A stretch of 64,000 nucleotides of DNA from Candidatus Latescibacterota bacterium (GTDB lineage: Bacteria; Latescibacterota; UBA2968; UBA8231). The notes beneath the pieces were generated by a model. That model did not search any database and was not told the DNA's origin. It saw only the letters and a program-made list of their open reading frames with translations. This document shows positions 11,884 through 35,590 of the stretch, piece after piece. The first letter of the stretch is position 1. Each line of letters opens with the position of its first letter. The stretch lies in the NCBI GenBank assembly GCA_965204725.1, contig OZ242005.1, positions 1,120,001 through 1,184,000 of the forward strand. The letters are read 5' to 3'. Made by a program: the position numbers and the translations under genes.

Positions 11884-11912
11884 TTGCAGGTACGCATCGG
11901 AATGGCTATGCT
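11884..11912 (+). promoter_or_regulatory. Sigma70-type promoter of tRNA-Val
   Basis: TTGCAG-17 nt-TATGCT ending 8 nt before the tRNA. Confidence 0.55.
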
Positions 11913-11920
11913 TAGAGCAT

Positions 11921-11997: not shown

Positions 11998-12008
11998 CTT
12001 TACTTTGC

Positions 12009-12035
12009 AAGCCCCTGAGCAATCAGGGGCTTTTT
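12009..12035 (+). terminator. Intrinsic terminator after tRNA-Val
   Basis: AAGCCCCTGA-GCAA-TCAGGGGCTTTTT. Confidence 0.8.
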
Positions 12036-12058
12036 ATTGGTGACAAGGAGGATTACTC

Positions 12059-14583: not shown

Positions 14584-14672
14584 GGGGGACCTCTTTACTC
14601 TAGGACTATCATCTTCCGCTCAACCACTATCCGAAGAACGGAGTGCCCGTGTCAATAGGTACTTCGTCGGGG

Positions 14673-15923
14673 TTAGGGAATGCTAGGGGTGCGCGTCGGT
14701 CGTAGCCCGAAGAAGGCTGCCATGATTAGGCCGCTTGCGATCCGCGCCGCGCAGGCCAAGCCGAAGGCGGCCCCGTAGCCATAGTCGAGGATGAGTGTGC
14801 CGCCTAGGAGGCTGCCGAGGAAGTTCAAAAGCTGGAAGCCGCAGACGCGCAGGCCCTGAATCCGCGCCCAGTAGCGCCGGGGTAGCACTTGGGTGGAGAA
14901 GTGCTGGTCGGATGGGTTGTCGATGACTTCGCCGATGCGGACGAGCAGGAACATGGGTACGGCCAACGGCAGGCTGATAAAGGCACCCATAATCCCGAGG
15001 GCGCTGCCGCCCACAGTGCGGGCCGGAAGGATGGTCAGGGTCGGGCCGAAGCGGCGCACTAGCGTTGGCGCGGCAAAGGTCGCGGGCAGGCCGGCGAGTT
15101 GGCTGAGGAAGAAGATCGCGCCGATTGCAACCGGGCCGATGCCCAGCTCGGCCTCGAAGAACACGTTGAAGAATGGATACGTCAGCCCCATGGAGAAGCC
15201 GCGCGTACCGCTCAAGGCGGTAATGGCGGCAAAGACCCGCCACGGGGTGGCCGCCGGCCGGTCCTCGTCCGGTGACCGGCGCGGTGGTGCTCTTTCGCGG
15301 CGGGTTTGGCCGGATGCGTACAACAGCGGCACGACCGCGATGAGCGAGCAAGCCGCGCCGAGAAGCAGGGCGTAGCGGAAGGGCGCGGGGGCCTCGGTGG
15401 AAAGGCCGAGGAAGTAGCCCATGACCCCGGGCATGAAGCCGCCGATTAGGCTCAAGAGCATGCGGACGATGATTTGCAGGGCCGACCATATAGCGAGGGC
15501 TTCGGCGCGTCGGGCCGGATGGGCGTTGTCCGAGAGGAAGGGGACGTGGTTGACCCAGACGAAGGCCATGGCCACGCCGCCGACAAACGAGAACGCCAGC
15601 AGGGACCCCGGCGACGTGGTCCAGCACAGGCCCACCTGAGAAACAGCCAGCAGCAGACCCGAGGCAATGAGGAAGGGCCGGCGGCCGAGGCGGTCGCTGA
15701 GGATGCCGGTGGGCAGCGCGAGCAGGCCGGTCGCCAGCGGTGCCATGCTGGCGACTTGGCCGATGAAGTCCTCTTGGTAGCTCAGGCGCAGTAGATAGAG
15801 GTTGTACAGCAGGGAGAAGAGCGCCATGCCGGCGTTGATCGAAGTGCCAAAAGCGAAAAACAGCCGGACATTGCGGTTGAATTCCCGCAGCCGAAAGCGG
15901 CTTAGGGCAGTGCCGATGGGCAT
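14673..15923 (-). CDS. MFS transporter
   Basis: About 12 hydrophobic segments; motif A GILSDRLGRRP. Confidence 0.9.
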   Translation of the reverse strand: MPIGTALSRFRLREFNRNVRLFFAFGTSINAGMALFSLLYNLYLLRLSYQEDFIGQVASMAPLATGLLALPTGILSDRLGRRPFLIASGLLLAVSQVGLCWTTSPGSLLAFSFVGGVAMAFVWVNHVPFLSDNAHPARRAEALAIWSALQIIVRMLLSLIGGFMPGVMGYFLGLSTEAPAPFRYALLLGAACSLIAVVPLLYASGQTRRERAPPRRSPDEDRPAATPWRVFAAITALSGTRGFSMGLTYPFFNVFFEAELGIGPVAIGAIFFLSQLAGLPATFAAPTLVRRFGPTLTILPARTVGGSALGIMGAFISLPLAVPMFLLVRIGEVIDNPSDQHFSTQVLPRRYWARIQGLRVCGFQLLNFLGSLLGGTLILDYGYGAAFGLACAARIASGLIMAAFFGLRPTRTPSIP

Positions 15924-16930
15924 CCGGCGTGGCGTTTCTCAAAGACCTCGACGGCTTTTTGCACGGCTATCTTTGCGGTTTGGACTCGCTCGGCAAAGGG
16001 CCGCTCCATGCCGGTCTCAATGGTGAAGGCCAAGCCGTAGGTGTGCGCGGCAAAGTCGGCGAGGTTGAGGCCCTCGCCGCGTTGCTGGGGATTGAGCCAG
16101 AAGACGCTGCGCGGCCCTTTGGTAAAAAAGGCCCCGGGCAAATAATCGCTCGGAGCGAGGGCCGCGCCCGAGGCCGCAACCGCCGAGATCATCTCGCCGG
16201 CGAGGGCCTCCTCCCACTGCTGGTCGCTAAGAGTGCGCTGGTGTCGCGCCGAAAACCAGAAGAAGTCGCCTTGGTGCTCGTGGAGGTCCAGCGTCAGGCC
16301 GGGCCTTATGGCGGCCATGAGATCGCGGGTGCAACGCGGCTCGATGGGTGCCCAAGGGGTGTCGTGGAAGCGATTGAGGTGGAGGACTTGGCCGGCCGGG
16401 TCAATCACCAGCGTGTACGCGCGTTCGACGCCGGGATTGCGGGTGGAGAAATAGAGCCGACGGCCCTTGAGGGCTTCGATCCAGTCGCCGACCGGATGGT
16501 TGTACAAATTGCGCGTTGCGTAGCCGGCCTCGCCGATGAGGGCGACCACGGTATCGCCTTCGTCCAAGAGGACTTGGCCGCACTCTTTGAGCAAGGGGGC
16601 TACGTCGTCGAGGCCGCTGAGATCGGGGACGGTCGCTAGGCTCATACCGAGCGCGTAGGCCAGTCCATTCAGGCCGATGGGGTCGCGGGTGGGAATGGTG
16701 TAGAGCGAGTGCTCGGTCTCGATCTCGTTGATGAGGGCGCAGGCCGCGCTGACGCCCGCCTGTTCGGTGGCGTGGCTGCCGGCGCTGATGAAAATGGCCG
16801 GTGCCTTGTTGCCGCCGCTTTTGACCGCGACGATGGGTTGTCCGTCGATTGTGTAGCCGATGGTCTGCGGGGTGTGACCGGCGTCCCGTATGTAGGCGAT
16901 CAGCTCGGGGTAGTGGTTGAATGGCTGCAT
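15902..16930 (-). CDS. M14-family zinc carboxypeptidase/deacylase-like protein
   Basis: SAGSHATE (HxxE), HLNR, LDLHEH, FTIETG. Start MQPFNH at 16930. Confidence 0.75.
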   Translation of the reverse strand: MQPFNHYPELIAYIRDAGHTPQTIGYTIDGQPIVAVKSGGNKAPAIFISAGSHATEQAGVSAACALINEIETEHSLYTIPTRDPIGLNGLAYALGMSLATVPDLSGLDDVAPLLKECGQVLLDEGDTVVALIGEAGYATRNLYNHPVGDWIEALKGRRLYFSTRNPGVERAYTLVIDPAGQVLHLNRFHDTPWAPIEPRCTRDLMAAIRPGLTLDLHEHQGDFFWFSARHQRTLSDQQWEEALAGEMISAVAASGAALAPSDYLPGAFFTKGPRSVFWLNPQQRGEGLNLADFAAHTYGLAFTIETGMERPFAERVQTAKIAVQKAVEVFEKRHAGCPSALP

Positions 16931-16935
16931 GGCGT

Positions 16936-17943
16936 TTAGGCGCACAGGGGATGCGCCATCTGGGCGCGGCGGAAGGGGATGTCGATTTGGTCGCCCTGAT
17001 TGATGGCGGCCATTTTGGCCCGCGCCTCCAGCCACAGCCGGTGCCACTCGGCCGGATCGCGCAATTCGCTGGCTGGGTCGCGGCGGCTGCGGGCGACAAA
17101 CCCGGGGAAGGCGATGCGCCCGGTGGGCTGGTCGGTGGGATTGTAGCGCAGGTCAAAGCTCCAACGAACCTCGTCGCTGAGGTTGGAATACGAGCCGTGG
17201 ACGGTCTGCTTGTGCATGCAGATGACGTCGCCGCGCTCCACCGGCAGGGGGATGGCCCGGTCGGCCGCGAAGAGCTTTTCCGGGACTTGGGCGGCCCCGG
17301 CAAACTGGGGCGCGTTGTCCATGTAGTTGGGGCAGTGCGGCAAGAGGCCGTTTTTGTGCGAGCCGGGCGCGACCATCAGCGGCCCCTTCTCAACGGGGGT
17401 GTCTTGCAGCGGGAACCACACCGTTAGCATCTGGGTGTCGTCGGCTTCTTCGGTTACGACGCCGTGGTCTTGGTGCCATTGGGTGGCCCCGAGGACGGCG
17501 TTGCCGAACTGGTTTTTGGGCAGGTAGCGCTCGGGCGGCTTGATCCGCACGTGCTGGACCGGGTTGGAGTAGATTTCCGGGCCGATTAGCGACTCGACGA
17601 CGTCGAGCAGGTTGGGGTCGGTGAAGGCGCGGAAGACGGCTGGCCCGGCCCAGAAGGGGGTGTCGGCCTGGACGTTCTGAAAGGGCAGCGAGAAGTCGAA
17701 GTACTGGCTGTGGACGCGGCCGGTTTCCACGCAGATTTGGATGTAGCGGTCGCCGAAGCCGAGCTCGTGGTAGCGCGAGGCAATCTCGCCTTGATCGTAG
17801 AGCTCGTCGGCCAAGTGGTCGAGGACGGTGGCATATTCGTCAATGACCGGGTCGAGGGTGTTGACCGGATCGAGGACGCCTTTGACGACGAGGTAGCCTT
17901 CGCTGGCAAAGTGGTCGAGTTGGGCGGGGGTGAGGGCGGGCAT
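16936..17943 (-). CDS. Phytanoyl-CoA dioxygenase (PhyH) family protein
   Basis: WHQD…TVWFPL…PGSH…TVHGS…RWSFDLRY, canonical HxD…H triad. GGAGG RBS before ATG 17943. Confidence 0.9.
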   Translation of the reverse strand: MPALTPAQLDHFASEGYLVVKGVLDPVNTLDPVIDEYATVLDHLADELYDQGEIASRYHELGFGDRYIQICVETGRVHSQYFDFSLPFQNVQADTPFWAGPAVFRAFTDPNLLDVVESLIGPEIYSNPVQHVRIKPPERYLPKNQFGNAVLGATQWHQDHGVVTEEADDTQMLTVWFPLQDTPVEKGPLMVAPGSHKNGLLPHCPNYMDNAPQFAGAAQVPEKLFAADRAIPLPVERGDVICMHKQTVHGSYSNLSDEVRWSFDLRYNPTDQPTGRIAFPGFVARSRRDPASELRDPAEWHRLWLEARAKMAAINQGDQIDIPFRRAQMAHPLCA

Positions 17944-18062
17944 GGGCGTAGCCTCCATTGGGTTCGGGTCAGTGGCTGGCGGTCTCTCTACAATACAGTA
18001 GGTTGCTGCGGTCTGGCAAGGGGCATCATAGCCGTTGCTTTGCGGATGTTTCTCCGATTTCC

Positions 18063-19982
18063 TCAATCGGCCTTTTGTTTTGCCTTTTGCAGTTGGTTAT
18101 AGCGCTCCAGAAATTCGTCGTGTGCTCGTTTTACCATGTCGAGTAGGTCTGTGTACCTTCTGACGTAGATTTGCGAGTTTGCTAAAATGTCTTTTTTTCC
18201 TCTCGCTTGATCAGTATTAACCAAATCTCCGCAAAGGAGATACCCGGTGACTGTCTCATATTGATAATCACTATCCGTCGTCCGGTTAATGTAAGCTCGC
18301 ATAAAGATAACGTACTCTTCAATTTGGTTGAGTTCCTTCACAGAAGCGTTTGACTGTGGGCGTTTGATTTCTACTACGACCAAGTTCGCGCCTTCTCGTA
18401 CACAGAGGAAATCAATGCGTCTGTCTCTTTCCGGGGCGTCGCTGTCTTCTGGGAATTTGTCGCGCAGTAGTTGACTGTATGTTACCTCGTCATCTACCAA
18501 CGACCAACGCGGGTCAATCACCCAAGGGAATTCTTTTAGGAAGTTGTGGAGCGTCGGCACTTCCAACGCATTGTCTTCAATCAGTTTTTGGAGTTTTTCA
18601 ATCGTCGTTATGCGCCCTTGAGTAACTCGCGCCATTTCTTTGGCTTCGACGATTTCCCACTCGCGGAATAGGTTGAGGAGCTTTTCGGTGTCCTCGAACT
18701 CCGTTTCAGTTAGGTCTTCGGCGATTTCCCAAAAGGCATCGAACTCGAGAAAATCGAGGGATGTTTGGATGACGGGTTCGATCTCCTCGACATCGGCGGT
18801 TGGGTTCTTGTCGATCACTTGACGCACCAAGCGGTCGGCGAGCTTCAGGGCGCGGTTATTGCCCGTTTCCTCGGCTTGCTCACGGAACTTAACGTAGAGT
18901 GCATTTTCCTCTAGTTGCTGTTCGTTATCGTCGCGGCGTTTTTTGGCCCACTTACGGGCGATTTTTTTGACCTCTTTTTGGCCCCACTCCTTGAGAGCCG
19001 TATTGGGTTCCGTGTCCCATACTAGCGAGTTTCGCGTCGTCCCGATTGTATCTTCCCCTTCATCGACAAACTCGACGTGGAGTTCGCCAATAAGGTAAGA
19101 GAGGGCGAATTGTTGACCGACAACGGCTTCAAAAACATAAGGCTCTTGTACTAGCTTGCCTCTCGCCATGAGAACGATTCCTCGGTCTATGCCGTCAATG
19201 TCCGGCGTCGTGCGGTTTAATGCACCGATCCAGCCCGATACGGTCCAGCCCGTTTGGGGCTGGATTTCTACGTCGTCGTACTCCCATAAGTACGGCTTGC
19301 CGTCCATGTCTTTGTCGAGTAGGGATTTGAGGTCGCGGTCTTCAGGCGAGATTGGGTCGCCGTTAATGACGACCTCGAAGCCTTGTTGTGCGCCAATGAC
19401 GGAGAATCGTCTGGCGAGTCCTCTACGGATTCTCTGAATCGAAATGCGGCGGCTTTTGAATTTTGTGATATGTCTGAGTATGATTTTCGTTCCTTTGGAG
19501 ACGGTTCCGGTAGGCGGCAGCGGCGGAAACTCGATGGTGCGTTCATCCGCTTTTTCCAACAGTTCGTCGTAGTTCATGCGGAAGTGGCTGCCTTCGCTGT
19601 CTTTCACGCTTTCTATGTCGATCTCTTTGGCGATGCCAAAGGCCGAGAATTTGCCAATGCCTTTTCGGCCCATGATCTTGCGGTTGTGCGGCGAAGGTGT
19701 CAGGTCGGATTGCTCGTTTTCGCGGCGGTCTCGGCCGACGATGAGGTACTTGTTCCGCACGTCCTCGTCGGACATGCCCATTCCGTCGTCGCTGATGATG
19801 ATTTCCGAGTGTTCGTCAATCGGTTTTTCGGGTATCTCAATCTCAACTTTGGTTGCGTTTGCGTCCCAGCCGTTGGCGACGAGTTCGCCGATGACGGGTG
19901 GCAGGGTCGAGTACATCTGCAAGCCGAGGTGTTTGATGGTGCAAACGTCGAACTCCATTCGGTAGGGGTCTCTAGAAGCCAT
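18063..19982 (-). CDS. GHKL (MORC/HATPase_c_3-like) ATPase fused to a C-terminal PD-(D/E)xK nuclease; probable restriction component
   Basis: ELVANGWDA, DDGMGM, GRKGIGK, GTKI; C-terminal RIDFLC…VVEIKR…QIEEY. Directly downstream of a C5 MTase. Confidence 0.8.
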   Translation of the reverse strand: MASRDPYRMEFDVCTIKHLGLQMYSTLPPVIGELVANGWDANATKVEIEIPEKPIDEHSEIIISDDGMGMSDEDVRNKYLIVGRDRRENEQSDLTPSPHNRKIMGRKGIGKFSAFGIAKEIDIESVKDSEGSHFRMNYDELLEKADERTIEFPPLPPTGTVSKGTKIILRHITKFKSRRISIQRIRRGLARRFSVIGAQQGFEVVINGDPISPEDRDLKSLLDKDMDGKPYLWEYDDVEIQPQTGWTVSGWIGALNRTTPDIDGIDRGIVLMARGKLVQEPYVFEAVVGQQFALSYLIGELHVEFVDEGEDTIGTTRNSLVWDTEPNTALKEWGQKEVKKIARKWAKKRRDDNEQQLEENALYVKFREQAEETGNNRALKLADRLVRQVIDKNPTADVEEIEPVIQTSLDFLEFDAFWEIAEDLTETEFEDTEKLLNLFREWEIVEAKEMARVTQGRITTIEKLQKLIEDNALEVPTLHNFLKEFPWVIDPRWSLVDDEVTYSQLLRDKFPEDSDAPERDRRIDFLCVREGANLVVVEIKRPQSNASVKELNQIEEYVIFMRAYINRTTDSDYQYETVTGYLLCGDLVNTDQARGKKDILANSQIYVRRYTDLLDMVKRAHDEFLERYNQLQKAKQKAD

Positions 19983-20003
19983 AACATACCTCCTTATTCA
20001 AGA

Positions 20004-20057
20004 CTGGATTCCCGCCCCGTGTCGGGGCACGGGGTGACGTTCTTTCGCGGGAATGAC
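20004..20057. repeat. REP-like palindromic element
   Basis: CTGGATTCCCGC…GCGGGAATGAC outer arms enclosing an inner CCCCGTG…CACGGGG palindrome, in the intergenic space between the MTase and the ATPase/nuclease. Confidence 0.6.
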
Positions 20058-20098
20058 GCCTTAGTATGAAAAAAAACGGTTCCGATGAACATTCCATG

Positions 20099-21118
20099 TC
20101 AACATGAATCGGCGATTGATTGGCCCAATTGTTCGGCGAGTTTTACCGGGACGGCGTTGCCGATTTGGCCCGATAAAAATAGAAAAGATGGGCCGAAAAA
20201 TTCGTAATCGTCGCCAAAGGTTTGGAGCGCGGCGGCCTCGCGCAATGAGATGCCTCTGTCTTGCTCGGGGTGGATGAAGCGGCCACAATAGACGTCTGTG
20301 CAGCGGCACGTTAGGGTTGGGCTCGGCGCGTCCCATGTCATGCGGCCAAATACGTCTTTGTGGGCGTTCGGCTGCTTTTGGTGGCACTTGAGTAGGATGG
20401 ACGTGTCCGCTACTTCCCGTCGGCTGCCGCCGTTTTTGGGGACGGCCGCGACAATGCGTTTGTGGTGTGGTTGCAGTTTTCTGGCGACGTGATTCGGGTA
20501 TGCCGCTGATGCTTCGCCATCGGCAATAGTCGGGTACTGGCCAATGGCGCGGCGCACGGTTGCATGGGCGGCGGTCTGTGGGCTGGGGAGCGCGGCGGCC
20601 CCGTGTCGGGAGGCCACGACGATGAATCGCTTGCGCGTCTGCGGAACGCCGAAATGTTTTGCGTCGATTAAGTCCGCTGCTTCTGAAAAGCCGCATCTTC
20701 TCAGGACCGACAGAAACTCTCGGTAGATTTCTTTGCCGTAAGCGTTGTTTAGTCCGGGAACGTTTTCTGCTAGGATGAAGTCGGGGGGGCGTTCCGCGAC
20801 GATTTTGGCAAAGTCCAGTAGGAGGGCTTTTCGTTTGTCTTGACCTTTTAGCTTATTGAGGGTGGAGAAGGGTTGGCACGGCGTACAAGCCGCGTAGAGC
20901 GTCAAGTCGTCGTCTTCAATGCCGAGCTCTTGGAGGAGTTTGTGGATTTGAATGTCGTTGATGTCGCTGTTGATGAAGCGGCATGGTTTGTTATTGTGTA
21001 TGTAGGTCTCCCGCAAACGTAGATCATTATCGACGCCGGCCAGCACCGAGATGCCGACATTCAACAGTCCTCTGGTTAGACCGCCCGCTCCGCAGAAGAA
21101 GTCAATGGCTTTAATCAT
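20099..21118 (-). CDS. dcm: DNA (cytosine-5)-methyltransferase
   Basis: DFFCGAGG (motif I), PCQPFS (IV), ENVPG (VI), QTRKR (VIII), QIGNAVP (X). Confidence 0.95.
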   Translation of the reverse strand: MIKAIDFFCGAGGLTRGLLNVGISVLAGVDNDLRLRETYIHNNKPCRFINSDINDIQIHKLLQELGIEDDDLTLYAACTPCQPFSTLNKLKGQDKRKALLLDFAKIVAERPPDFILAENVPGLNNAYGKEIYREFLSVLRRCGFSEAADLIDAKHFGVPQTRKRFIVVASRHGAAALPSPQTAAHATVRRAIGQYPTIADGEASAAYPNHVARKLQPHHKRIVAAVPKNGGSRREVADTSILLKCHQKQPNAHKDVFGRMTWDAPSPTLTCRCTDVYCGRFIHPEQDRGISLREAAALQTFGDDYEFFGPSFLFLSGQIGNAVPVKLAEQLGQSIADSC

Positions 21119-21431
21119 GGGGGGCCTCGTGGTGCTCTAAGGCGGGCAATCCCTTCACGATCTTCACTGTCTCCAAACTCACCGTAATCATCTTGCCGAT
21201 CAACTCGACGATGTATTGCGGCTCGTCCCCTCGATTCGGATCATTGGTGATACCGCTTCGTTTGTCTGTCTTGACGCGGTACTGGTCGATTATCCATTCC
21301 AACGCCGACCGATTCCCGAGTTGATAGTCATAAGTTTCCGGTGGAATCCCGTCGAGTGTTAGGTTATTGCGGTCTGGCAAGGGGGTTATGCGCCGATTGA
21401 GCGGCAAATCTCGGCCTGAGTTAGTGATCAT
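21111..21431 (-). pseudogene. 3' fragment (C-terminal tail) of the single-chain R-M gene
   Basis: LTLDGIPPETYDYQLGNRSALEWIIDQY…VKGLP is nearly identical to the C-terminus of 25573..28662. Its stop overlaps the dcm start. Confidence 0.85.
21145..21359. repeat. Direct repeat copy 1 (215 bp) of the R-M gene 3' end
   Basis: Manual alignment to 25610..25824 is ungapped with about 17 mismatches (~92% identity). Confidence 0.92.
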
Positions 21432-21483
21432 AATCTTTCCGCCTCAAGAGGAACTTAGGTTCTTCGGCGATTGGCCTAAGCTA

Positions 21484-22977
21484 TCACCGTGAGTAGTCCG
21501 ATGGATTTTTCATGTTACCATTGATCACAAATACAAATGCCTTAGATGGAAAATCTTTGGCTGTATCGACTCCCCCATGAGTCTCGACATCAGTGAGAAT
21601 AATATCGTTCCGAATGTCCCCAGGAGGTTTATCTTTAGTCGTCAGGTCGAGCACGAGAAGGATGCTGACTTGTCGGGCTTCGACGCCTGCGTATTGAGTA
21701 GCTTGGGCTGTGTACTTTTTCGAGATGTGCTCTCGGTCACCGTTTTCCTTTTCGACTTTTAGTTCGACAATCACTCCGAGATACCTAATATCTGTGACGC
21801 CTCCTGCTTGGCTTGAGTGTTCTTGTACATCCTGTCCGAGCACATTCCGAAGATCTCGAAGCACTGTTGCTTGGAACTCGGACTCCGATACATCACTCTG
21901 TCCCTTGTAGATTGCTTCTTGAGCATAAGTAGCTAGCAGACGAGTGAGAGCCTGAAGCATCTTTAACAAGTCAGGAAGTTCATCTCGGACCTTGGGACAG
22001 TCTGAAAGCAGACTTGTGGCAAGTTCGTTAATGTGTTGATCCAGCCTCCGGTTGCCTGTCATCAGGGGATGCCTGTCTTCATTAACAACTTTGAGACGCA
22101 GCTCATTGTGCCCAATTACGGGGAGTTCAATGAACTTCCCGTCGGACGTTTCAAATGCACCACGAACTGTAAACACAAGATCATCTAGACCGATACTTTG
22201 CTCTGAATTGAACTTAATTTGTCCTGCTAATTTCCCCCGATATTCGCCGTTTTCAACACTACCCGGTGCGTCCAGCGCAAACTTGGAAACCGAGAACTCG
22301 GTTGAGGGACACGTCGTAAGCAAGTCAAGGTGAAGGCGAACCGCATCATTTGGCCATGTGAGGCCACGCACCCGAAATTCCAAAGGGTACAAAATATTGG
22401 GCTTTAAGAGTTGCGGACTTGCAAGCGGAGCATGATCCAGAAATACAATCACCCTCAACATCGGGCTTAGCGTAGCTACGGGTTCTTCTACCTCATCTTG
22501 ATACGGAAGATCCAATTTGCTTCTATGCCAGTACAATATAGGTAGTGGGACTGCCAATAGGAATGTACGCAGTTCGTCGGAATCGTATTGCCCTGTTTGG
22601 AGCAACGGTTGACGAGTTGAATCCGCGATACCCGGCAGTGTGAGAGTGTCCGCCGAAATCCAACGTCGTAGCTCACCAACTAAGACATCGCATCTTGTAC
22701 GTTCCGCAACCAAGTCACCTTCACTCCCTTGGGCAATTGCTACACAAGTAACTTGACTGACCAAGACACGTAGGCCGGCAACTATGACCTTCCACTCTAT
22801 AGGTACATGTTCATCTGGTGTCTGTTTAATAAGTTTGTCAATCTGATCGACGAAGGTATCAACTTTCTGACGCCATTCTACTTTGTCATAAGTTGTCGAG
22901 TTCAAAATCGTGCGTATATCATGAATGAGTGCTACTGAATTAGAAGCATGGTTAATATCCAACTTGGATTCCCGCAT
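21484..22977 (-). CDS. Hypothetical protein with C-terminal PD-(D/E)xK-like nuclease domain
   Basis: ESEFQ…QEHSSQAGGVTDI…IVELK…QATQY…ILLVLDLT. The ATG overlaps the upstream stop (TGATG). Low GC. Confidence 0.65.
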   Translation of the reverse strand: MRESKLDINHASNSVALIHDIRTILNSTTYDKVEWRQKVDTFVDQIDKLIKQTPDEHVPIEWKVIVAGLRVLVSQVTCVAIAQGSEGDLVAERTRCDVLVGELRRWISADTLTLPGIADSTRQPLLQTGQYDSDELRTFLLAVPLPILYWHRSKLDLPYQDEVEEPVATLSPMLRVIVFLDHAPLASPQLLKPNILYPLEFRVRGLTWPNDAVRLHLDLLTTCPSTEFSVSKFALDAPGSVENGEYRGKLAGQIKFNSEQSIGLDDLVFTVRGAFETSDGKFIELPVIGHNELRLKVVNEDRHPLMTGNRRLDQHINELATSLLSDCPKVRDELPDLLKMLQALTRLLATYAQEAIYKGQSDVSESEFQATVLRDLRNVLGQDVQEHSSQAGGVTDIRYLGVIVELKVEKENGDREHISKKYTAQATQYAGVEARQVSILLVLDLTTKDKPPGDIRNDIILTDVETHGGVDTAKDFPSKAFVFVINGNMKNPSDYSR

Positions 22978-25541
22978 CAAGTTTTATCCTTTCCCTTAGC
23001 AAAATATGCTTCAGCCGCTACTATGTCACCTGTTTGTAGTGATGCGTTTCCTGCGGCGATCATAGCAAGTTGCTTTAATTTTGTGCGAAATGCTTTGTTC
23101 CTTGGTTCTTCAGGGAGAGCGTTGAATGCGGTCTCCAATACTTTTTGCTCATACCGAAATGAACGAAAGTGCGTGAAAAGGCTTGCGAAATGGCATGATT
23201 CCCAAGGGTCGAGTTTGGCCAATTTTTGGGCGGAGACTAAGAGGTCACCTGCTACGTGCTGATACGTCGCTTCCGGTAGTTTATGTAACCACTCGAAGAA
23301 TCGAAGACGTTTTGAATGTCCGTAGTAATTATAGCGATCTCTGCTATGGTGTGCTAGATGCACACCAATGTCCTTGGCAACAAATTTAGCAATTTCTTCG
23401 CTTGGCTCGCAGAACCAAATCAGACTTTCCGCGATCTTGCTATCTACAAGGTCTTCTTTAGTCGGAAAGACAGACTCAACTAGGCGCAACGCTACTGGTT
23501 TGAAGATCGCATCTTGCTGGCCAATTTTCAGGATTGCATCGCAGATACTTTCGAGTTGATATTTATCATTATGGTACACACGAAGGTGTGCTTCAAGACA
23601 ATTAAGAACTTCAAGTAGTTGACTTTTATTAAACCACCTTGAACACCGAGCCACGGCTTGTCGTGCAGCCTGATGAACAATTACTTTCGGGTCTTGTAGG
23701 TGAACGACAATGGTGTCCACAAGATTTTGGGGTGGCATAGTAGTCGAAAAAGAGAACATCTCGACTGTTGCGTTTATTGCTTTAGCCCGCACCCAAGCTG
23801 AATCGTAATCCATCAACGTACGCCAAATCAAAGGCAGTACGCGTGTTTGGAGAGTATAGTTCTTGCCAAGCTCACCGAGCAACGATACACAGCACACCTT
23901 GAATTCGTCCTCAAGATGTACTGGCGGTTGGTTCAAACAGTTGAAGACAGAATCGAATGTCTCTGAAGGATTGGCCTTGCAGAGTTCGTTCAAGCATCCC
24001 TGCAATCGTCCTTTGAATAAATCCCATTCTTGGATGCGCCCTAATTCTTCTAGCTGCTCAAGTTGAGTATCCTGTGCCTGAGTCTGGTTAGGTAACAGAA
24101 TCGTGGGTGGTGGAGAGGGCGGACGTTCCTCGCCACTAATGATGGCAAAATAACCGAGGAGAGAGTCAAAATGATTCAGCATCTCTGCCGAGGCATTCAT
24201 ACAGGCAATTTTCAATGCCTCAAGTGCATAGGATCGAATATCGATCTCGAATCTGTCATCTTTAGTCCATGAAAGTAGTCTTTTAATTGCAATCTTTTCC
24301 TGTTCATCTACTTCAGTTCGGTTTCTATGCTCATGCCGTTCATCCCAGCTTATGGTCTGGTCGAAAAATTGGCCTAGGTACACGAGAACAATATCTTCTT
24401 GCACGGCTGGACGAACGCGGATCATTGACCCGGCAAGAAACTGGTCAACTCTCTCTGAGGAACATCGAAACGCCGATTGCAAAATTTGGATAATCTGCCT
24501 TGATGGCCTCACTTCATGTGACCGTGTATTTTCGTAAAATTCAAGTGATTGAACTAAGTCACCAAGTAGATTCTCGACTATCTGTGGTCGTTCGCACTGA
24601 ATAAGTTTGATTGCTCCACACAATTGGAAGCGTACGGCCACATTCTCGTTTTGTAGTTCACGGCGAATAATGTCTTGCACACTCTCTGGATCAGTGTCAA
24701 AATTTCGTACGATGACTGTGGTACTGTGACAGGAGTGATTCTGTGAAAATATCAAGTGTTTGATACATACTTCACTAAGTGGATACTCAACGGCGTCATC
24801 GAGCGCGTTAATCACCTCAGCAGACAGTTCTGTATATTGTCCTTTCTCAATGTTGTCAAAAGCTACTTGGCTAAAACGAGAGCCTAACTCAGAGCGTCTG
24901 CTGGCGAGTTCTGTGCAGACTGGAAGCATTAGATCAGAAAAATCGTTGGAACCAGCAAGCAGCAAGATCAGATCAATCGCAGCTTCAGGGAAAAGGTCCG
25001 CCCCCAAGCGTGCTGATTGTTGCAAGCGTTCGGCTGCTTCCTTGCGTTCTGCTTCATTTTCTGAGAAAATCGTCTCAAGATACTCAAGTATGCGATAAGA
25101 CTCAGATTCTGATTCCGAACTAATTTCTTTGGATTTTTCACGTAGGTCAGAGCGAAGTTGGGATATTCGCTCCGCTTCTGTTTCGGCTGCTTGAGTACGT
25201 TCTTGGACTTCTATCCGGTGTTTATCGATAATCTCTTGTCCCCACGAGGTATCTCCATTAGGGGTATGATGCGGACAAGTAGCACAATGTTTTACAAGAA
25301 AATTGGAGAAAATACAACGAAGATTCATGGACTCGCGCATGCCCTCTACTTTGGGACAGCCTATGCTATGGCTTGCGATGGGAAGCCCTGTCATCTGTGC
25401 GTAAAGCCCTTCAGTAGTTCGCTCGATCTCTACATATTTGCACCAACTCCGCATTTGGCTTATGCACTCAGCATTGTCCTCACCGAGCTTTATAGCCTGA
25501 TTAAGCTCATTAGCTTGAGATTCGTCAAATCGTCGCATCAT
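22977..25541 (-). CDS. Hypothetical alpha-helical (HEAT/ARM-like) repeat protein with Cys-rich N-terminus
   Basis: 854 aa, Leu/Glu-rich amphipathic repeats (ENVAVRFQLCGAI; DSAWVRAKAINA; DPKVIVHQAARQAV); N-terminal WC…GCP…CATCPH; GAGGA RBS; low GC. Confidence 0.65.
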   Translation of the reverse strand: MMRRFDESQANELNQAIKLGEDNAECISQMRSWCKYVEIERTTEGLYAQMTGLPIASHSIGCPKVEGMRESMNLRCIFSNFLVKHCATCPHHTPNGDTSWGQEIIDKHRIEVQERTQAAETEAERISQLRSDLREKSKEISSESESESYRILEYLETIFSENEAERKEAAERLQQSARLGADLFPEAAIDLILLLAGSNDFSDLMLPVCTELASRRSELGSRFSQVAFDNIEKGQYTELSAEVINALDDAVEYPLSEVCIKHLIFSQNHSCHSTTVIVRNFDTDPESVQDIIRRELQNENVAVRFQLCGAIKLIQCERPQIVENLLGDLVQSLEFYENTRSHEVRPSRQIIQILQSAFRCSSERVDQFLAGSMIRVRPAVQEDIVLVYLGQFFDQTISWDERHEHRNRTEVDEQEKIAIKRLLSWTKDDRFEIDIRSYALEALKIACMNASAEMLNHFDSLLGYFAIISGEERPPSPPPTILLPNQTQAQDTQLEQLEELGRIQEWDLFKGRLQGCLNELCKANPSETFDSVFNCLNQPPVHLEDEFKVCCVSLLGELGKNYTLQTRVLPLIWRTLMDYDSAWVRAKAINATVEMFSFSTTMPPQNLVDTIVVHLQDPKVIVHQAARQAVARCSRWFNKSQLLEVLNCLEAHLRVYHNDKYQLESICDAILKIGQQDAIFKPVALRLVESVFPTKEDLVDSKIAESLIWFCEPSEEIAKFVAKDIGVHLAHHSRDRYNYYGHSKRLRFFEWLHKLPEATYQHVAGDLLVSAQKLAKLDPWESCHFASLFTHFRSFRYEQKVLETAFNALPEEPRNKAFRTKLKQLAMIAAGNASLQTGDIVAAEAYFAKGKDKT

Positions 25542-25572
25542 TTCCTCGATTCTCCCTGTCAGATGTCGCTAT

Positions 25573-28500
25573 CTATATATGTTTTTTGTTTTTCTGCACA
25601 TCCAACTCCGGCAACCCCTTCACGATCTCCACCGTCTCCAAGCTCACCGTAATCACCTTGCCGATTAGTTTGACGATGTATTGCGGCTCGTCCCCTCGAT
25701 TCGGATCATTGATGATGCCGCTTCGTTTGTCTGTCTTGACGCGATACTGGTCAATTACCCATTCCAACGCCGAGCGATTCCCGAGTTGATAATCATAAGT
25801 TTCCGGTGGAATCTCGTCGAGTGTCAAGAAGTCGTTGTACTTGATATGCGTCTTGTCTTTGGATAGGCGCATTTTCTCTACGCGCCAGTCGAGCGGCGCG
25901 TCCGGGTTTTCGATGAAGTTGAGCCGATGTTCGGGTTGGGCTTCATAGCCGACGTGGAGTTCTGCCAAGCGTTGCCCCGCTTTGGCAAAGGCCCAGAAGT
26001 CCGGGGCGTAAGGGATGTGCGGCAAGTCTCGCTTGAGGTTGGCTTGGTATCGCGTCCGGTATTCCGGGTGGTGGAGCAAGCCATAGACGTAGTGGAAGAT
26101 GGCGCATTTGGTGATGGTGTCGTCGCTGTAATGCGAGCGGAATTGGGTCAAGGCCCAGTCGGTGATGTTCTCGCGGCGGTTGCTGCCGTCCTCGTCGTAG
26201 ATGTAGAAGGAGAAGCATTGGGTTTTTTCAAGTATGTCAAGACACGGAATCATAGAAGCCATCAGGGTTTGAAAAGGTTTGTTACTTCCGATGCCACTGA
26301 CACAAATCACTCGATTTTCTTTTTCTGTCTCAGGTATGGGGAAGATGGAGGGGAAAGCGTACACCCTCTCGTTCATCAATCGGTCAAAGTAGAGGTTCGG
26401 TTTCGTGAATGGACGATAGGATGATACCCTTATCTTTTTTTCTGAAAAATTAGCGGTTCTCCCTCTTGCTAAGTTTCGTTTAAGGGCCTCGCTCCACTTG
26501 ATTTTTTGATCATCAGAAGTCACAAAGTCATCGATATTTGCATCTTGATCCGTCCGTTGTTTCCATCTGGATCTCTGCTCGTTGTAGGTATCAATCATCC
26601 GCTTCATGTTACCAGTGAGCACATTTCGATCAAAGTTGTACGCCCAATCATTGCGGCTCGTGTTGACACCAAGGCTATAAATCTTAAATATCACATCCGC
26701 TCCCTCGCCCTTCTTCGCCTTTGCTTCCCGACTTCCCATCGGCACAAAAATTTCAAATCCTGTGTCGAGTCCTTCCGTGAGCCATGTATGTTGTCTGTCT
26801 GGCGTTATTGGTTTCCATTCGACGTTGCGGTAGTGTTCCTTTGAAGCAAGATAGCGATACTTTTCTTCTTTGCGCCAGAACTCGTCAACACGAGCGTAAG
26901 AAATTTTGGTAGGGGAATTTGCACTGTCGTTCTTTTTGATAAAGATGTTAATGCTCACACCGACTTGGATTCCAAAGACGTTGTGCGTCGTGCCGGAGAG
27001 CTTTGGATTTTTGCGAACATTCCCGCTCAAATCGAGAATGTAAATCGCGTCAAAATCATCTGCCAAATGTTTTCGCATTCCGTCAAATGCCACGCCTTCG
27101 AGAAATCCATTGTTCGTTACCAGCGCGATAATGCCTTCATTTCCGATCCGGTCTGATGCCCACCGAATCGCTTTTACATAATGATCGGAGAGTTTACTTT
27201 TATTTGACGCCTTAGAGGCTCGCGAATACGTCTCCGCAACCCGCTTATCCATCGTCTCGTACTTCCGATTTTTGTTATTGTCGTTCTCGTTGACTTGGCC
27301 GACGTTGTAAGGCGGATTGCCGACAATCACAAACATTTCCGTTTCCTTTTGCCGTTCAACCCGCGCCGTGTTCTCCTCAGTAAACAACGCCAACTGATGC
27401 TCCTCGGCCAGTTCAAACGTATCGACCAAGCACAGCCCTTCAAACGGCTGATAACGCCCCGTCGCCTCGTAGAACTCGTGCTCAATGTTCATGGACGCGA
27501 TGTAGTAAGGCAACAGCATCACCTCGTTGCAGTGAAGCTCGGACGAATACTTGGCCTCCAGCGCAGTGCGGCGAATCTCGCGCATCATGCGGACGATGAA
27601 ATTACCCGTGCCGACAAACGGGTCGATGATGTGAACGCCCGCGTCCGAGAGCGAGCGACCAAACTCAGTCTGCAAAATCTGCTCAACACTTCTCGCCATA
27701 AAATCGACAATCGGCTGCGGCGTATAGACAATGCCGTGCGTATCGGCGACTTCCACTGAAAACCCCTGAAAAAACTGCTCATAAACCGTGTTGAGGAAAT
27801 GCTGCTTTTGAGAAAAGTCATGGATGGTTTCCGCTGTTCGCTCAATCGCGACATAGAAGCGGTCGAGGCTCTCGAGAAAATCGCGGCGGCTAAACGACTG
27901 AGACGTAAGCGCGTCAATGACCCGCTCGATCTCGTGGGCAATCACGTTGCGCCGCGTAAAATCGGGATTGCTAAAGACGGTGCGGAAAATCCGCTCGGTC
28001 AACAGATGCTGAACGAGCATCTCCTCAACAGCGGCTTGAGAAAGATTGGGATTGATGGACTGCCGACACTTATCGTAGAAATCCGCAAAGGCCGTGGTGA
28101 AGCGGCGGTTGGTCTGCCGCTCCCGTTGAATCAACGCCGCCAACCCTCGCCCAATGTCGGGAACCTTGTCCTTGAACTGAGCGACCGCCTCGTCCCATTC
28201 GGCAATCGCCGGCGGCCGGTGCGAAAAAAAGGCGTCGAGCGTCTGGACGAGTTGCGCTGGGTCGGTCAGATCAGCGTCGAGAACAAGGGCGTCGTTCTGC
28301 CACAAGATCGCTCGTTGGGGCGTTTGGAACAGGATGTTGTCGCTGGGATACCCAGCCGCAAACTTGCGCTGCACTTCGGCGGGCAAGTCGTCGTCTATGT
28401 CCTTAGCCTCCCAATAGCCATGCGGCAAATTAAACTCGTCGATCAGGGCACCATCGACGCGAATGCGCTTGTTCTGAGGGAGCGCGATAGAATGCTCCGG

Positions 28501-28662
28501 CACAAGCGTCCACCGAAACTGCTTCCCACACGTTTCAAGCAACGATTGAAACGCCGAGCGCACCGCAGTCTCATGCTCGACGCCGATCTGCTTAAAGGCA
28601 TCGAGCGATTCGTAGTACGCCGTAACGGGCTTGTGCGTGGGCTTGAGATTGAGAGTCGGCAT
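25573..28662 (-). CDS. Single-polypeptide N6-adenine restriction-modification enzyme (Type IIG/ISP-like, no helicase domain)
   Basis: N-terminal RVDG…YWEAKD nuclease motif, IIDPFVGTG (motif I), GNPPY (motif IV), C-terminal type ISP-like specificity region. Confidence 0.9.
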   Translation of the reverse strand: MPTLNLKPTHKPVTAYYESLDAFKQIGVEHETAVRSAFQSLLETCGKQFRWTLVPEHSIALPQNKRIRVDGALIDEFNLPHGYWEAKDIDDDLPAEVQRKFAAGYPSDNILFQTPQRAILWQNDALVLDADLTDPAQLVQTLDAFFSHRPPAIAEWDEAVAQFKDKVPDIGRGLAALIQRERQTNRRFTTAFADFYDKCRQSINPNLSQAAVEEMLVQHLLTERIFRTVFSNPDFTRRNVIAHEIERVIDALTSQSFSRRDFLESLDRFYVAIERTAETIHDFSQKQHFLNTVYEQFFQGFSVEVADTHGIVYTPQPIVDFMARSVEQILQTEFGRSLSDAGVHIIDPFVGTGNFIVRMMREIRRTALEAKYSSELHCNEVMLLPYYIASMNIEHEFYEATGRYQPFEGLCLVDTFELAEEHQLALFTEENTARVERQKETEMFVIVGNPPYNVGQVNENDNNKNRKYETMDKRVAETYSRASKASNKSKLSDHYVKAIRWASDRIGNEGIIALVTNNGFLEGVAFDGMRKHLADDFDAIYILDLSGNVRKNPKLSGTTHNVFGIQVGVSINIFIKKNDSANSPTKISYARVDEFWRKEEKYRYLASKEHYRNVEWKPITPDRQHTWLTEGLDTGFEIFVPMGSREAKAKKGEGADVIFKIYSLGVNTSRNDWAYNFDRNVLTGNMKRMIDTYNEQRSRWKQRTDQDANIDDFVTSDDQKIKWSEALKRNLARGRTANFSEKKIRVSSYRPFTKPNLYFDRLMNERVYAFPSIFPIPETEKENRVICVSGIGSNKPFQTLMASMIPCLDILEKTQCFSFYIYDEDGSNRRENITDWALTQFRSHYSDDTITKCAIFHYVYGLLHHPEYRTRYQANLKRDLPHIPYAPDFWAFAKAGQRLAELHVGYEAQPEHRLNFIENPDAPLDWRVEKMRLSKDKTHIKYNDFLTLDEIPPETYDYQLGNRSALEWVIDQYRVKTDKRSGIINDPNRGDEPQYIVKLIGKVITVSLETVEIVKGLPELDVQKNKKHI
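25610..25824. repeat. Direct repeat copy 2 (inside the 3' end of the intact R-M gene)
   Basis: Matches 21145..21359. Confidence 0.92.
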
Positions 28663-28930: not shown

Positions 28931-31248
28931 GTGCCTCCCGCACTCCAAATTCCGCTGTATCCCCGCCTGCTCAAAATCCTGCAAAGCGTCGGCGCGGTCC
29001 TCTCGCTCGCCAGTGCGCTCTCAGCCGAGTCGCTCCGCTTTGACGCGGCCAATGAGTGGCAGACTTGGCCCTTGCCGCTGGGGATTGTCGCGCTCGACGA
29101 CGCCGGAGTCATCCGCCCGGTCGAAATCCGCAAAAACCCCGACCCGGTGCGCGATGCCGCAGCCTTTGGCGGCGGAATTCACGCAGCAGGCTCCAACTCG
29201 CTGGCCGCAGCGCGAGCCATAGACGGAGATCAGCAAACCGGCTGGAGCCCCAACTTGGCCGACGACTTAGACGACTGGTGGATCGAGATCGACTTGGGAC
29301 GAGCCGTGGCCGCGCGGCGAGTAGTGCTGACCTTTTTGGAAACTGCGCCGCCGTGTGCGCTGTTCGACGTGTTGCTTTCCACCGGGGAGCCAGCCATCGA
29401 CGTAGTTGGCAACCCGATTGAAGGCAGCCTCGTGTACCGCGTGCAGGAGCGCTTCAAGGAAAACCAACGGCCGCAGGTCGCGCTAGAGCTAGACCCGGTG
29501 CGCGACCCGTTCGTGCAATTTATCCGCGTCGAAATGCTCGACTGTGGGGCCGACGCCGCACTGGCCGAGGTGGCGGTCGAAGCCATCGGCGACAACCTCG
29601 CCTTGGGGCTGGCGGACAAGGGCGGGGGCTTGGAACTCATCGTGGATATTGACGGCTTTGGCGACGCCGCGTCGTTTGCCAATGTGCTGCCGCTGGCCGA
29701 CGGCCGGTTTTCCCTGTGGACAGAAAACCGCCGCATCAACCGCTCGGTGGATGTAATCTCGCGCATGACGTTGGACTTGGGTGCGGTCTTTTGGGTGGAT
29801 TTAGTCCGCATCGTCGGGACTTTTTGTCGCGCCCGGGGCAATTCCGCTTCAACTTCGACCGCTACGAGGTGCTGACCGCAGATGGGTCGCTGGCACCAGA
29901 CGGCACGCGGATATGGCACCGGCAATTCGCCGGCAAGGCCACCATGTCCAATCGCCAGCTCGGGATCGCCAACCACCACTTCGCGCCGCTTGCGACGCGC
30001 TACGTGCGGGTCGAATGGGTGTTTTGGGACGCGGCCTGCGCGGCCGCTTGCGTGGGGTGCGGCATTGTGCCGCCCTGCCAGTTTTGGGGCGGTACGCGCG
30101 AGTTGCAGGTCTTTGGCGAGGGCTATCCGCAGCGGGTGGTGTTGCCCTCGCCCCTGATCGACTTAGGCGGCGACAAGCAGGTACACGCGATCCGCTGGCA
30201 GGCCGACGCGCCCGCCCAAACGCGGGTGGAAGTCCGCAGCCGCACCGGCAACGACCTGCAAATGGACATCACCTATCACGACAAAAACGGCCGGGTCGTT
30301 TCCGAGCGAAAGTACAACAAGCTCATTCCGTCCTTTAAGGGCCGGATTGACACCGCGCTTTCCCCAGGGGCCGATTGGAGTCCGTGGAGCAAGCTGTATT
30401 TGCAGCCGGGCGAGCCGTTCGCGTCGCCCTCGCCCCGCCGCTACGCCGAGTTGGAGGTCGCCTTGGTGTCCGAGCGGCCGGATGCGGGGGCGGCCTTGGA
30501 TTGGCTAGTGCTTGAGTTCGGCGACCCGGTGGCGCGCACCGTGGTGGGGGAGATTTTTCCGGTCGAGGTGCAGCCGGGGGAGCGGACCGAGTTTGCCTAT
30601 TACATTCGTCCGCAGCAGGTGGCCGGCCGCGGCTTTGACCACTTGGCGGTGGAGACCTCCGCGCCGATTGAGTTTGTCTCGGTGTTGGTTGAGGGCGAGG
30701 TGGTGGAAGCAACGGCGGAGCCAACGGAAGGGGGGCTGGCGGTCGCCTTAGCCGCGCCGGTTAAGAGCCGCCAGTTAGTGGAGCTGCGCTTTGCGGGAAC
30801 CGTGTTTGTCGATGCCACGCGCTTTGACGCCTTTATTGGCCAAGACCAAGTGCGGCAGCGAGTGGAGGCGGGCGATGCGTCCTCAGCAGTCGCCAGCAGT
30901 ACCAATGCCGTGCGCTTGCCCGTGGGAGCGCGGCTGTTGGCCAACGTGTCGATGGGGCCGCTGTGGTTGACTCCCAACGGCGACGGGGTCAACGACGCCC
31001 TACGAGTGGAATTCGACTTGGTCAATATGTTGGCCGCCCGGTCTATCGGCCTGCGGATTTTCGACCTTGCGGGGCGACTGGTGTGGGTGCGGGCAGAGGA
31101 GGGCCGGGCCGGTGGTCGGGCTTGGGTTTGGGACGGCCGGGGGCGTTGGGGGGCGCCGGTGGGGCCGGGGTTGTACATCGTAGAGTTGCGCGTTGAGGGG
31201 GACGAGCAAAGCTACAGTCGGCAGCGCGTGGTCGCCGTGGCGTACTAG
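28931..31248 (+). pseudogene. Frameshifted secreted FlgD-Ig-tail protein (paralog of 12619..14583); single-base deletion near 29816-29825
   Basis: ORF 28931..29875 (signal peptide, discoidin-like) joins ORF 29716..31248 (…TPNGDGVND…IFDLAGR…WDGR…GLYIV…AVAY) by a -1 shift at GTC GGG ACT TTT TGT. Could be an assembly error. Confidence 0.75.
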
Positions 31249-31291
31249 CGCTTGATTACCCAAAACCATCCCCCGCACAGGAGAACCGAAC

Positions 31292-31954
31292 ATGAGATTG
31301 ATCCTCGTAGGTTGCGAATACGCTGGTAAGACGACCTTGGCCAACGCCATCGTCGGTTGGATTGAACGCACCTTTGGCTCGTCGCGCACCTTCCACGACC
31401 ACTTCAGCCTGCCGTGCAACGAGTTTCCCGTAGAGGAACAGGAGCAACTGCTGGCCCTCAGCCCGCGGCTGAAGGAGATGTTCCAGCGCTACATGATGCA
31501 CTATCACTTCCACCCCGCCTTCTACAGCGACCCAGACCACAACTTGGTGGGTTTTCACATTGAAGAGGCCGTGTACGCGCCCCTGTACTACGGCTACGGC
31601 GGCCGAGGCGAGTACGCCGACCGCACCGCGCTGGCGCGTGCCCTTGACGAGGAGGTCATGCAGCACGCGCCCGACACGGTACTCGTGCTGCTGCGGGCGC
31701 GGCCCCAAGTCATTGCCCAGCGCATGCGCGATCAGCCACACAAGCGGCCGGTAGTGCAGGAAAAGGACATCGAACTCGTGTTGCAGCGCTTTGAGGAGGA
31801 ATACCGCGACTCGCTCATCCGCAAGAAGTTCGCCCTCGACACGTCCGACGCCACCGTGGAGCAGACCTTGGCCGAGTTCACAGGACAAATCAAAAAGCAC
31901 CTCAGCGACGCCGACCGCCTGCGCCTTTTGGCCCAGCAGAACTGGCCGACCTAG
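31292..31954 (+). CDS. P-loop nucleoside monophosphate kinase-like protein
   Basis: LILVGCEYAGKTT Walker A; VLLRA…RM lid region; LDTS; AGGAG RBS. Confidence 0.7.
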   Translation: MRLILVGCEYAGKTTLANAIVGWIERTFGSSRTFHDHFSLPCNEFPVEEQEQLLALSPRLKEMFQRYMMHYHFHPAFYSDPDHNLVGFHIEEAVYAPLYYGYGGRGEYADRTALARALDEEVMQHAPDTVLVLLRARPQVIAQRMRDQPHKRPVVQEKDIELVLQRFEEEYRDSLIRKKFALDTSDATVEQTLAEFTGQIKKHLSDADRLRLLAQQNWPT

Positions 31955-31957
31955 GCC

Positions 31958-33424: not shown

Positions 33425-33504
33425 GGGGATTCGCTTGAAGTGATGCCGCCAAGGGCGTTTTTTATTGCTTGGAGCATGTAAGTCTCTTTTACTGCGGGAT
33501 GGGT

Positions 33505-35586: not shown

Positions 35587-35590
35587 GGCG

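Follow-up and report, generated by a model that had tools for sequence, protein, structure and literature searches.

Olokun is an anti-phage family made up of two proteins, OloA and OloB, and is attributed to Millman et al. 2022 in the available part of a review (PMC12926258); the text of the Millman preprint itself mentions neither Olokun nor adaptin. In the part of a preprint on PfOlokun that was available (Ragucci et al., bioRxiv 10.1101/2025.07.10.664194), the purified proteins are described as a 2:2 OloA-OloB complex of ~278 kDa in which the PD-(D/E)xK domains lie side by side. This complex degrades T7, SEC 17, and SPO1 DNA, does not degrade E. coli genomic DNA, nicks plasmid, is active only at 1 uM, and is disrupted by mutations in the OloB active site. 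The same part of the preprint reports that every operon tested, Olokun included, protected against at least one phage, and the list of systems with P-loop-homologous accessory proteins given there does not include Olokun. Here, we analyzed a 64,000-nucleotide (nt) stretch of a Candidatus Latescibacterota bacterium genome (GenBank assembly GCA_965204725.1, contig OZ242005.1, positions 1,120,001 to 1,184,000 of the forward strand), referred to below as the window, and within it a pair of adjacent genes, A and B, at positions 21484 to 25541. We conclude, with a probability of about 0.72, that the A-B pair belongs to the Olokun family, as a divergent member of its long form, and is not a new kind of immunity.

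Both genes lie on the minus strand. Gene A (oloA-like, 22977..25541) is an open reading frame (ORF) that begins with ATG and encodes 854 amino acids (aa; 97.8 kDa), and gene B (oloB-like, 21484..22977) is an ORF that begins with ATG and encodes 497 aa (55.7 kDa). They meet at the junction ACTTGATGCGG, in the TTGATG core of which the TGA stop of A and the ATG of B share one A. A TTG one codon upstream offers an alternative start for B (21484..22980) and would give a protein of 498 aa; the homologues of gene B start at the residue aligned with the window's ATG. The GC content is 45.8% for the pair and 49.7% for the island in which it sits (18063-28662), compared with 64.5% and 62.6% in the flanks at 8001-18000 and 29001-36000, respectively. 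An initial annotation of this DNA, made from the sequence, had described an 854-aa and a 497-aa gene coupled by a TGATG overlap, much more AT-rich than the surrounding genome and placed between two restriction-modification (R-M) modules. All of this was confirmed, with a Type IIG gene upstream of the pair and a Type II C5 methylase and endonuclease downstream. A large protein collection held 116 relatives of A and 222 of B, so the two genes are not chance ORFs; those relatives that carry a name are all called "hypothetical."

The relationship to Olokun was traced in several steps of sequence comparison with the PADLOC models for OloA (PDLC03925) and OloB (PDLC03926). Window B matched the OloB model at 1.6e-5 (22 bits, profile positions 214-455 of 556), and all 34 members of the B family matched it at E <= 0.01, with a best value of 1.3e-11. 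The OloA model was matched by 5 of the 39 A-family members (best, 3.9e-9). Two proteins in which A and B are naturally fused matched both models, namely P0090 (OloA 5.7e-9, OloB 3e-7) and P0240. Searching 401 genomes with the OloB model yielded four loci. Three of them (L034, L035, and L036) are short pairs, with an OloA of 521-580 aa, an OloB of 564-578 aa, and very strong scores. The fourth, L037, is a pair of 851 and 481 aa that matched OloA at 3.4e-45 and OloB at 7.9e-51. By BLASTP, the A protein of L037 aligned with window A at 3e-22 over 704 residues, the W-C...C...C..C.H motif included, while its B protein aligned with window B at 1e-21, from the sandwich through the nuclease domain to the last residue. 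An hhalign comparison of the window A family with the L037-type (long OloA) profile gave a probability of 100% (E 5.3e-63, 806 columns). Given this value and the strong match of the L037 A protein to the OloA model, window A is homologous to OloA by transitivity, and, as the homology to L037 covers both proteins, the window pair can be placed in a divergent long-form branch of Olokun in the PADLOC sense. The initial annotation had been unable to match the pair to a named system and had expected PADLOC to return nothing if the pair was novel. The first statement no longer stands in view of the OloB matches (34 of 34), the OloA matches (5 of 39), and the L037-type profile homology. As for the second, PADLOC returned a match to a known system, Olokun, albeit a weak one.

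The likeness to Olokun is one of architecture as well as of sequence. In both cases, there are two adjacent, co-oriented genes, with A first and B second; A, like OloA in the available part of the preprint (10.1101/2025.07.10.664194), is built of adaptin/HEAT-like helical repeats and lacks a P-loop; B, like OloB, combines an N-terminal helical domain with a PD-(D/E)xK nuclease domain; a contact is predicted between A and the helical domain of B, as in that same part of the preprint (10.1101/2025.07.10.664194); and both PADLOC models match members of the window family. The differences are that the window pair is only 24-26% identical to the nearest clearly recognized pair (L037 type), that window A escapes the OloA model, that the highest-scoring (short) pairs lack the Cys4 domain and are seemingly unrelated in sequence, and that the pair of the window's subclade travels with a Type IIG R-M gene.

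We then considered the predicted structure of protein A, which AlphaFold2 (AF2) modeled with a predicted local distance difference test score (pLDDT) of 88.9 and a predicted template modeling score (pTM) of 0.71. Residues 1-98 (25248..25541, minus strand) form a small alpha/beta N-domain with four cysteines and a putative zinc site, as judged from conserved columns and the model. A long helix follows (residues 99-143), and residues 146-851 (22989..25106, minus strand) form an alpha-solenoid that extends to the C-terminus, according to both AF2 and Foldseek. The cysteine cluster that had been picked out at the outset proved to be conserved: across 39 homologues of 40-89% identity, W33-C34, C62-P63, C86, and C89 are invariant, and H92 is nearly so. 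A regular-expression search detected the N-terminal Cys motif in 72 of 75 A-type representatives of 800-950 aa among the matches listed. With this pattern of conservation, the Cys4 N-domain probably binds zinc.

Foldseek searches of the PDB with the A model returned HEAT solenoids only (SF3B1 5ife_C at E 3.7e-7, Kap121p, CAND1, and transportin), with low template modeling scores (TM-scores) of 0.18-0.35, the matches being generic HEAT solenoids. Two A homologues, P0023 (1.1e-6) and P0106 (4.7e-6), weakly matched Adaptin_N. The Walker A motif was found in none of the 39 A-family sequences, and neither A nor B had a match to a nucleoside triphosphatase (NTPase) in Pfam or PADLOC. As modeled, A is a HEAT/adaptin-like helical-repeat protein without an NTPase motif, which agrees with the HEAT/ARM-like repeats lacking a P-loop that had been read from its sequence. 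DSR2 provides a precedent for a HEAT-like sensor in the available part of its description (PMC11263360), and by likeness to the logic of DSR2 and Avs we infer that the repeats of A could serve as a sensor. The ESM Atlas placed A with a cluster auto-named "DUF4062 domain-containing protein" (0.89), which we treat as a lead only.

Protein B was modeled by AF2 with a pLDDT of 79.2 and in three parts. Residues 1-145 (22543..22977, minus strand) form an N-terminal helical bundle, which the complex model places against the C-terminal end of A; residues 170-300 (22078..22470, minus strand) form an Ig-like beta-sandwich in the AF2 model; and residues 310-497 (21487..22050, minus strand) form the predicted PD-(D/E)xK-type nuclease domain. 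The initial annotation had read the end of B as E…TD…ELK…Q..QY, and conservation across 34 homologues bears this reading out, with D396, E405-L-K407, Q425, and Q428-Y429 invariant and E354 nearly invariant. In the model, the elements of the C-terminal domain are a helix at 328-358, strands at 384-386, 397-399, and 402-409, a helix at 415-429, and a strand at 437-444. Their alpha-beta-beta-beta-alpha-beta order is the PD-(D/E)xK order, with D396 just before strand 2 and E405-x-K407 on strand 3. We assign the C-terminal domain of B as a predicted PD-(D/E)xK-type nuclease based on the invariant motif, the topology of the model, and profile hidden Markov model (HMM) matches to the nuclease regions of LmuA and OloB. 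Pfam returned a single weak PDDEXK_9 match for the B family (1 of 34, E 0.064), and an ESM Atlas hit to PDDEXK_9/DUF8371 (0.78-0.80) is again a lead only. Otherwise, searches of Pfam, NCBIfam, PHROGs, and PDB sequences with A and B, as single sequences or as profiles, gave nothing useful.

The nuclease domain of B also occurs in other settings. It recurs at the C-terminus of P0239, a 1210-aa protein that carries the JGI name NACHT NTPase (62% over 193 aa), and the domain alone is found, at 54% identity, on 573-576-aa Pelosinus proteins (L022:8846-10576 and L023:8855-10576), the L022 copy with TPR repeats. These sequence matches give it the appearance of a shuffled immune effector module.

The best PADLOC match of B was in fact to a component of Lamassu: residues 300-497 matched the LmuA model PDLC03853 at 1.8e-20, and 34 of 34 B members matched this model. 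As residues 78-252 of window A also matched the LmuB model PDLC03863 (4.6e-4), one could read the pair as a Lamassu-like or other SMC/NTPase-driven system. We regard this as extremely improbable. The LmuA match is confined to the nuclease domain (model positions 445-653, the last ~210 of 655), such that B shares with Lamassu the C-terminal ~200-residue nuclease region of LmuA while the rest of LmuA is unmatched. The LmuB match is found in 2 of 39 A members and covers the long helix and initial repeats of A, which folds as a HEAT solenoid, has no Walker A motif (0 of 39), and lacks an SMC/ABC head with coiled coil. There is neither an SMC-like LmuB nor an LmuC, and no third gene is kept beside the pair. 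Among the 401 genomes, we found no genuine PDLC03853 LmuA proteins, only the window's own family. Lamassu identity was rejected on this anatomy, namely the fold of A, its lack of Walker A, and the restriction of the LmuA match to the nuclease part.

Identity with Avs or another STAND NTPase was likewise rejected, there being no NTPase domain on A or B and no Walker A. The single-chain Avs/STAND proteins resemble the window pair in joining a helical-repeat region to an effector, and the B nuclease domain is itself carried by P0239 (JGI "NACHT") and the TPR protein of L022, but the window pair lacks an NTPase and consists of two separate chains. The initial proposal of a coupled helical-repeat and PD-(D/E)xK nuclease module, which had been compared with Avs, is thus upheld for the module, by motifs, model, and HMM matches, and the Avs comparison is reduced to an analogy.

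Next, we modeled the complex of A and B, using residues 430-854 of A and 1-305 of B. The model scored 0.73, whereas the best of three controls scored 0.00, so this check, proposed with the initial annotation, came out in favor of a pairing. The mark applied to the score is passed by 116 of 157 solved complexes and by 2 of 215 mismatched pairs, and it is only approximate here, where our own alignments were used. Runs of the complex model shared at least 90% of contacts, with a partner pLDDT of at least 77. On the A side, the predicted interface consists of helices 780-851 plus ~562-607 and 740-746; on the B side, it consists of the helical domain (5-22, 57-59, 113-118, and 141-150) and part of the sandwich. 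PDB sequence searches found no similar complex.

The best fold matches of B residues 1-300 were Integrator INTS7/INTS4, where HEAT repeats, a helical bundle, and a beta-sandwich scaffold a nuclease, but the TM-scores were low (0.19-0.21) and the root-mean-square deviation was high. Judged from the models, this likeness is probably a shared arrangement of common domains, convergent and not a sign of kinship. We note separately that one A homologue, P0106, has a weak INTS7_N match.

A mechanism can be proposed from homology and from the biochemistry of PfOlokun in the available part of the preprint (bioRxiv 10.1101/2025.07.10.664194). A and B would be translationally coupled, and their products would form a stable complex, with the helical domain of B gripped by the last part of the A solenoid, at its C-terminal end. 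If the assembly resembles the published 2:2 OloA-OloB complex, two B nuclease domains would be placed next to each other. Such a complex would be inactive on host DNA and would cut phage or other incoming DNA on recognizing a DNA feature or a phage product, with recognition supplied by the solenoid and/or the Cys4 domain. We infer A-B binding, its stoichiometry, metal binding, DNA cleavage, the trigger, and protection from this analogy.

We also examined how widely the family is distributed. A profile of A searched against 1.84 billion proteins retrieved 785 cluster representatives at E <= 0.001 (606 at 1e-10 and 266 at 1e-30). For gene context, 23 genome loci were compared, from Latescibacterota, Planctomycetota, Chloroflexota, Cyanobacteria, Gammaproteobacteria/Pseudomonadota, and Pelosinus. 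In 18 of these, A immediately precedes B on the same strand; in the remaining five, B is at a contig edge (three loci) or the architecture is different (two loci, both Pelosinus). A is also upstream of B in 12 of 20 metagenome loci, the other eight being B fragments or having too little upstream DNA. The suggestion that the pair might be a split form of a ~1350-aa fusion found elsewhere was borne out by at least four A-B fusions: P0090 (1394 aa), P0288 (1357 aa), P0308 (1355 aa), and the more distant P0240 (1345 aa). In P0090, A is followed by B, which occupies residues 898-1394 at 52% identity.

Closer to the window, only 4 of 81 related genomes, the window's own counted, have a B match, and one of the four retains no more than a 100-aa remnant interrupted by a stop codon. 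This sparse occurrence marks the pair as accessory and acquired by horizontal movement, a foreign character that its low GC content also fits. The remnant, in a genome of the same genus (G412:C1:1065468-1065770), covers residues 397-497 and contains an in-frame TAA, which suggests that the A-B system has decayed there. Elsewhere, in the Latescibacterota locus L003 (5370-9625), ~1.7 kb of inserted DNA divides the A gene into two segments (5370-6563 and 8393-9625). A 559-aa ORF within the inserted DNA (6506-8185) matched nothing in Pfam or PADLOC, and the insertion may represent a mobile element of an unclassified type.

A patchy and mobile spread of this kind, with B in 4 of 81 relatives and homologues on integrase, Replic_Relax, and Mu-like transposase islands, would also suit an addiction or inter-element competition module. 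B would then be a nuclease toxin restrained by A, and the module, not dedicated to phage, would stabilize its island or exclude plasmids. The 215-nt direct repeats that bracket the pair in the window, and that could delete it, fit this idea, as does the disruption of the PfOlokun complex by nuclease active-site mutations (available part of bioRxiv 10.1101/2025.07.10.664194). Nevertheless, we find this explanation distinctly improbable. The four or more natural A-B fusions do not suit a labile antitoxin, A and B are far larger than classical toxin-antitoxin proteins, and a NACHT-annotated protein and a TPR protein carry this nuclease domain as well. Moreover, protection against at least one phage was reported for every operon tested, including Olokun (available part of bioRxiv 10.1101/2025.07.10.664194).

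The neighborhoods of the homologues are those of an immune system in many cases, and A-B homologues are frequent defense-island cargo. The defense-island association that the initial annotation had proposed to look for among homologues was often seen, in Type I, Type III, toxin-antitoxin, and integrase contexts. In both L003 and L004, the pair sits between hsdS and hsdR of a Type I operon, accompanied by DarG and a ThsB-like TIR protein in the former and by DarT, DarG, and an AAA_15 ATPase in the latter. Other copies adjoin an Eco57I/MmeI-like enzyme and an HKD-Snf2 helicase (L016), a Type III methylase and an AbiEii/Gabija-like ATPase (L006), Nmad2, Nmad3, and HNH genes (L021), or toxin-antitoxin genes (L007 and L012). 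L015 has a Type ISP enzyme 4 kb away, and five further loci (L009-L011, L018, and L020) are on integrase, Replic_Relax, or Mu-transposase islands.

Several observations weigh against membership in Olokun or against an immune function. Window A had no match to the OloA model PDLC03925 at E <= 0.01, and window B reached only 22 bits on OloB, with the result that PADLOC would probably not call the system here. Membership as used here runs via the PADLOC models and the L037 pair, not via the sequences of experimentally tested operons. The short-type pairs gave hhalign probabilities of 0.1-1.4% and no significant BLASTP match when compared with the window family or the L037 type. The measured mass of 278 kDa for PfOlokun falls between those expected for 2:2 complexes of the short type (~266 kDa) and the long type (~292-307 kDa). 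Fold searches with whole B (Foldseek, VIA-wide) were filled by matches to its helical and Ig-like domains, including Integrator INTS7/INTS4, STAT proteins, and Ig-like modules, and never reached the nuclease domain. Finally, two loci (L013 and L019) have housekeeping neighbors, and in the metagenome loci, which have short flanks, BLAST with a set of R-M reference proteins gave no match.

The short-type pairs also lack the Cys motif, and PDB profile searches with them were empty. As the short and long types show no similarity to each other by BLASTP or hhalign, the PADLOC Olokun models seem to cover two sequence types, and the OloA and OloB models may be composites. In our judgment, the wording "adaptin-like" and "N-terminal helical domain" points to the long type for the tested Olokun. 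As a side observation, the short OloB begins with a D...S-x-K-like stretch, which might be an N-terminal nuclease.

Upstream of A in the window, at a distance of 31 nt, is the gene for a 1029-aa Type IIG/ISP-like R-M enzyme (25573..28662, minus strand), identified by domain and PADLOC matches (Type_ISP_C 2.7e-106, ISP_coupler, and N6_Mtase; REase_MTase_IIG 2.8e-248). Window positions 21484-28662, which comprise the Type IIG gene and the A-B pair, align without a break to L001:4278-11494 from another Latescibacterota genome (84.8% over 7247 nt). The same 7.2-kb block is present in L007:4268-11500 from Caldilineaceae (Chloroflexota), at 68.4% over 7300 nt. These uninterrupted alignments indicate that the three genes travel together in this subclade, and a Type IIG-A-B block kept across two phyla is the modest novelty that remains.

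Such linkage could mean that the pair forms a functional three-gene unit with the Type IIG enzyme, with an Olokun-like complex that works with or guards this enzyme. The complex might read R-M methylation to spare host DNA, or it might fire when a phage disables restriction, and the invariant Cys4 domain of A could be the reader. PrrC, located inside a Type I locus, fires in this way when a phage inhibits restriction. The alignment is unbroken between the start of the Type IIG gene and the stop of B, in L001 (84.8%) and, in another phylum, L007 (68.4%); the gap separating the Type IIG gene from A is 31 nt, with no minus-strand terminator-like site between the two; and the pairs of L003 and L004 start 35-53 nt after hsdS, inside the Type I operon. 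We nonetheless rate a three-gene unit as unlikely because the Type IIG gene is linked in only 3 of the 18 genome loci with A upstream. The linkage is also independent of A/B similarity, as the gene is missing from L004 (A 65% identity) and present in L007 (59%). In addition, the pair is found beside housekeeping genes or on integrase islands, R-M reference proteins matched none of the four metagenome loci that extend at least 2.4 kb upstream, and R-M neighbors are normal for defense-island cargo.

The history of the block may be seen in two direct repeats with 92.1% identity over 215 nt (blastn). Copy 1 (25610..25824) is within the 3' end of the Type IIG gene, and copy 2 (21145..21359) is within a 106-aa remnant ORF (21111-21431, minus strand) that matches only the last part of the Type_ISP_C domain and is absent from L001. 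Recombination between the repeats would excise A and B, with a complete Type IIG gene remaining. The arrangement probably arose when a Type IIG-A-B cassette entered a resident Type IIG gene by recombination.

Downstream of the pair is a Type II R-M module (18063..21118, minus strand) whose two genes were identified by profile matches, a C5 methylase (20099..21118, minus strand) and a BbrUII/HgiDII-family endonuclease (18063..19982, minus strand). This module is common to the window and L001, at 77-82% nt identity. A promoter and terminator scan of the locus was uninformative. We also note a third R-M system ~8 kb from the pair, at window positions 33469-42240 on the plus strand, with an HsdM-like gene (33469-35586), a 174-aa ORF after it (35591-36115), an HsdS gene (36469-37695; PDB 1yf2_A at 3.1e-58), and an HsdR-like gene (38977-42240). 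Between hsdS and hsdR is a 352-aa gene (37699-38757, plus strand) with a GC content of ~46-47%. This is a "cargo after hsdS" layout, as for the A-B pair in L003 and L004.

Olokun is a named but little studied system, for which one preprint (10.1101/2025.07.10.664194) gives biochemistry among the papers searched. The 785 cluster representatives of A indicate that the Olokun-type family is much wider than current models report, and many members would escape annotation. HEAT-plus-nuclease pairs should be checked by profile against Olokun before they are called new. The window pair belongs to a long form with an invariant Cys4 N-domain, a feature that the available part of the preprint (10.1101/2025.07.10.664194) does not mention for Olokun. 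Natural A-B fusions, together with a confident interface model, offer ready constructs for structural work. The predicted nuclease domain of B is shared by the LmuA model, a NACHT-annotated protein, and a TPR protein.

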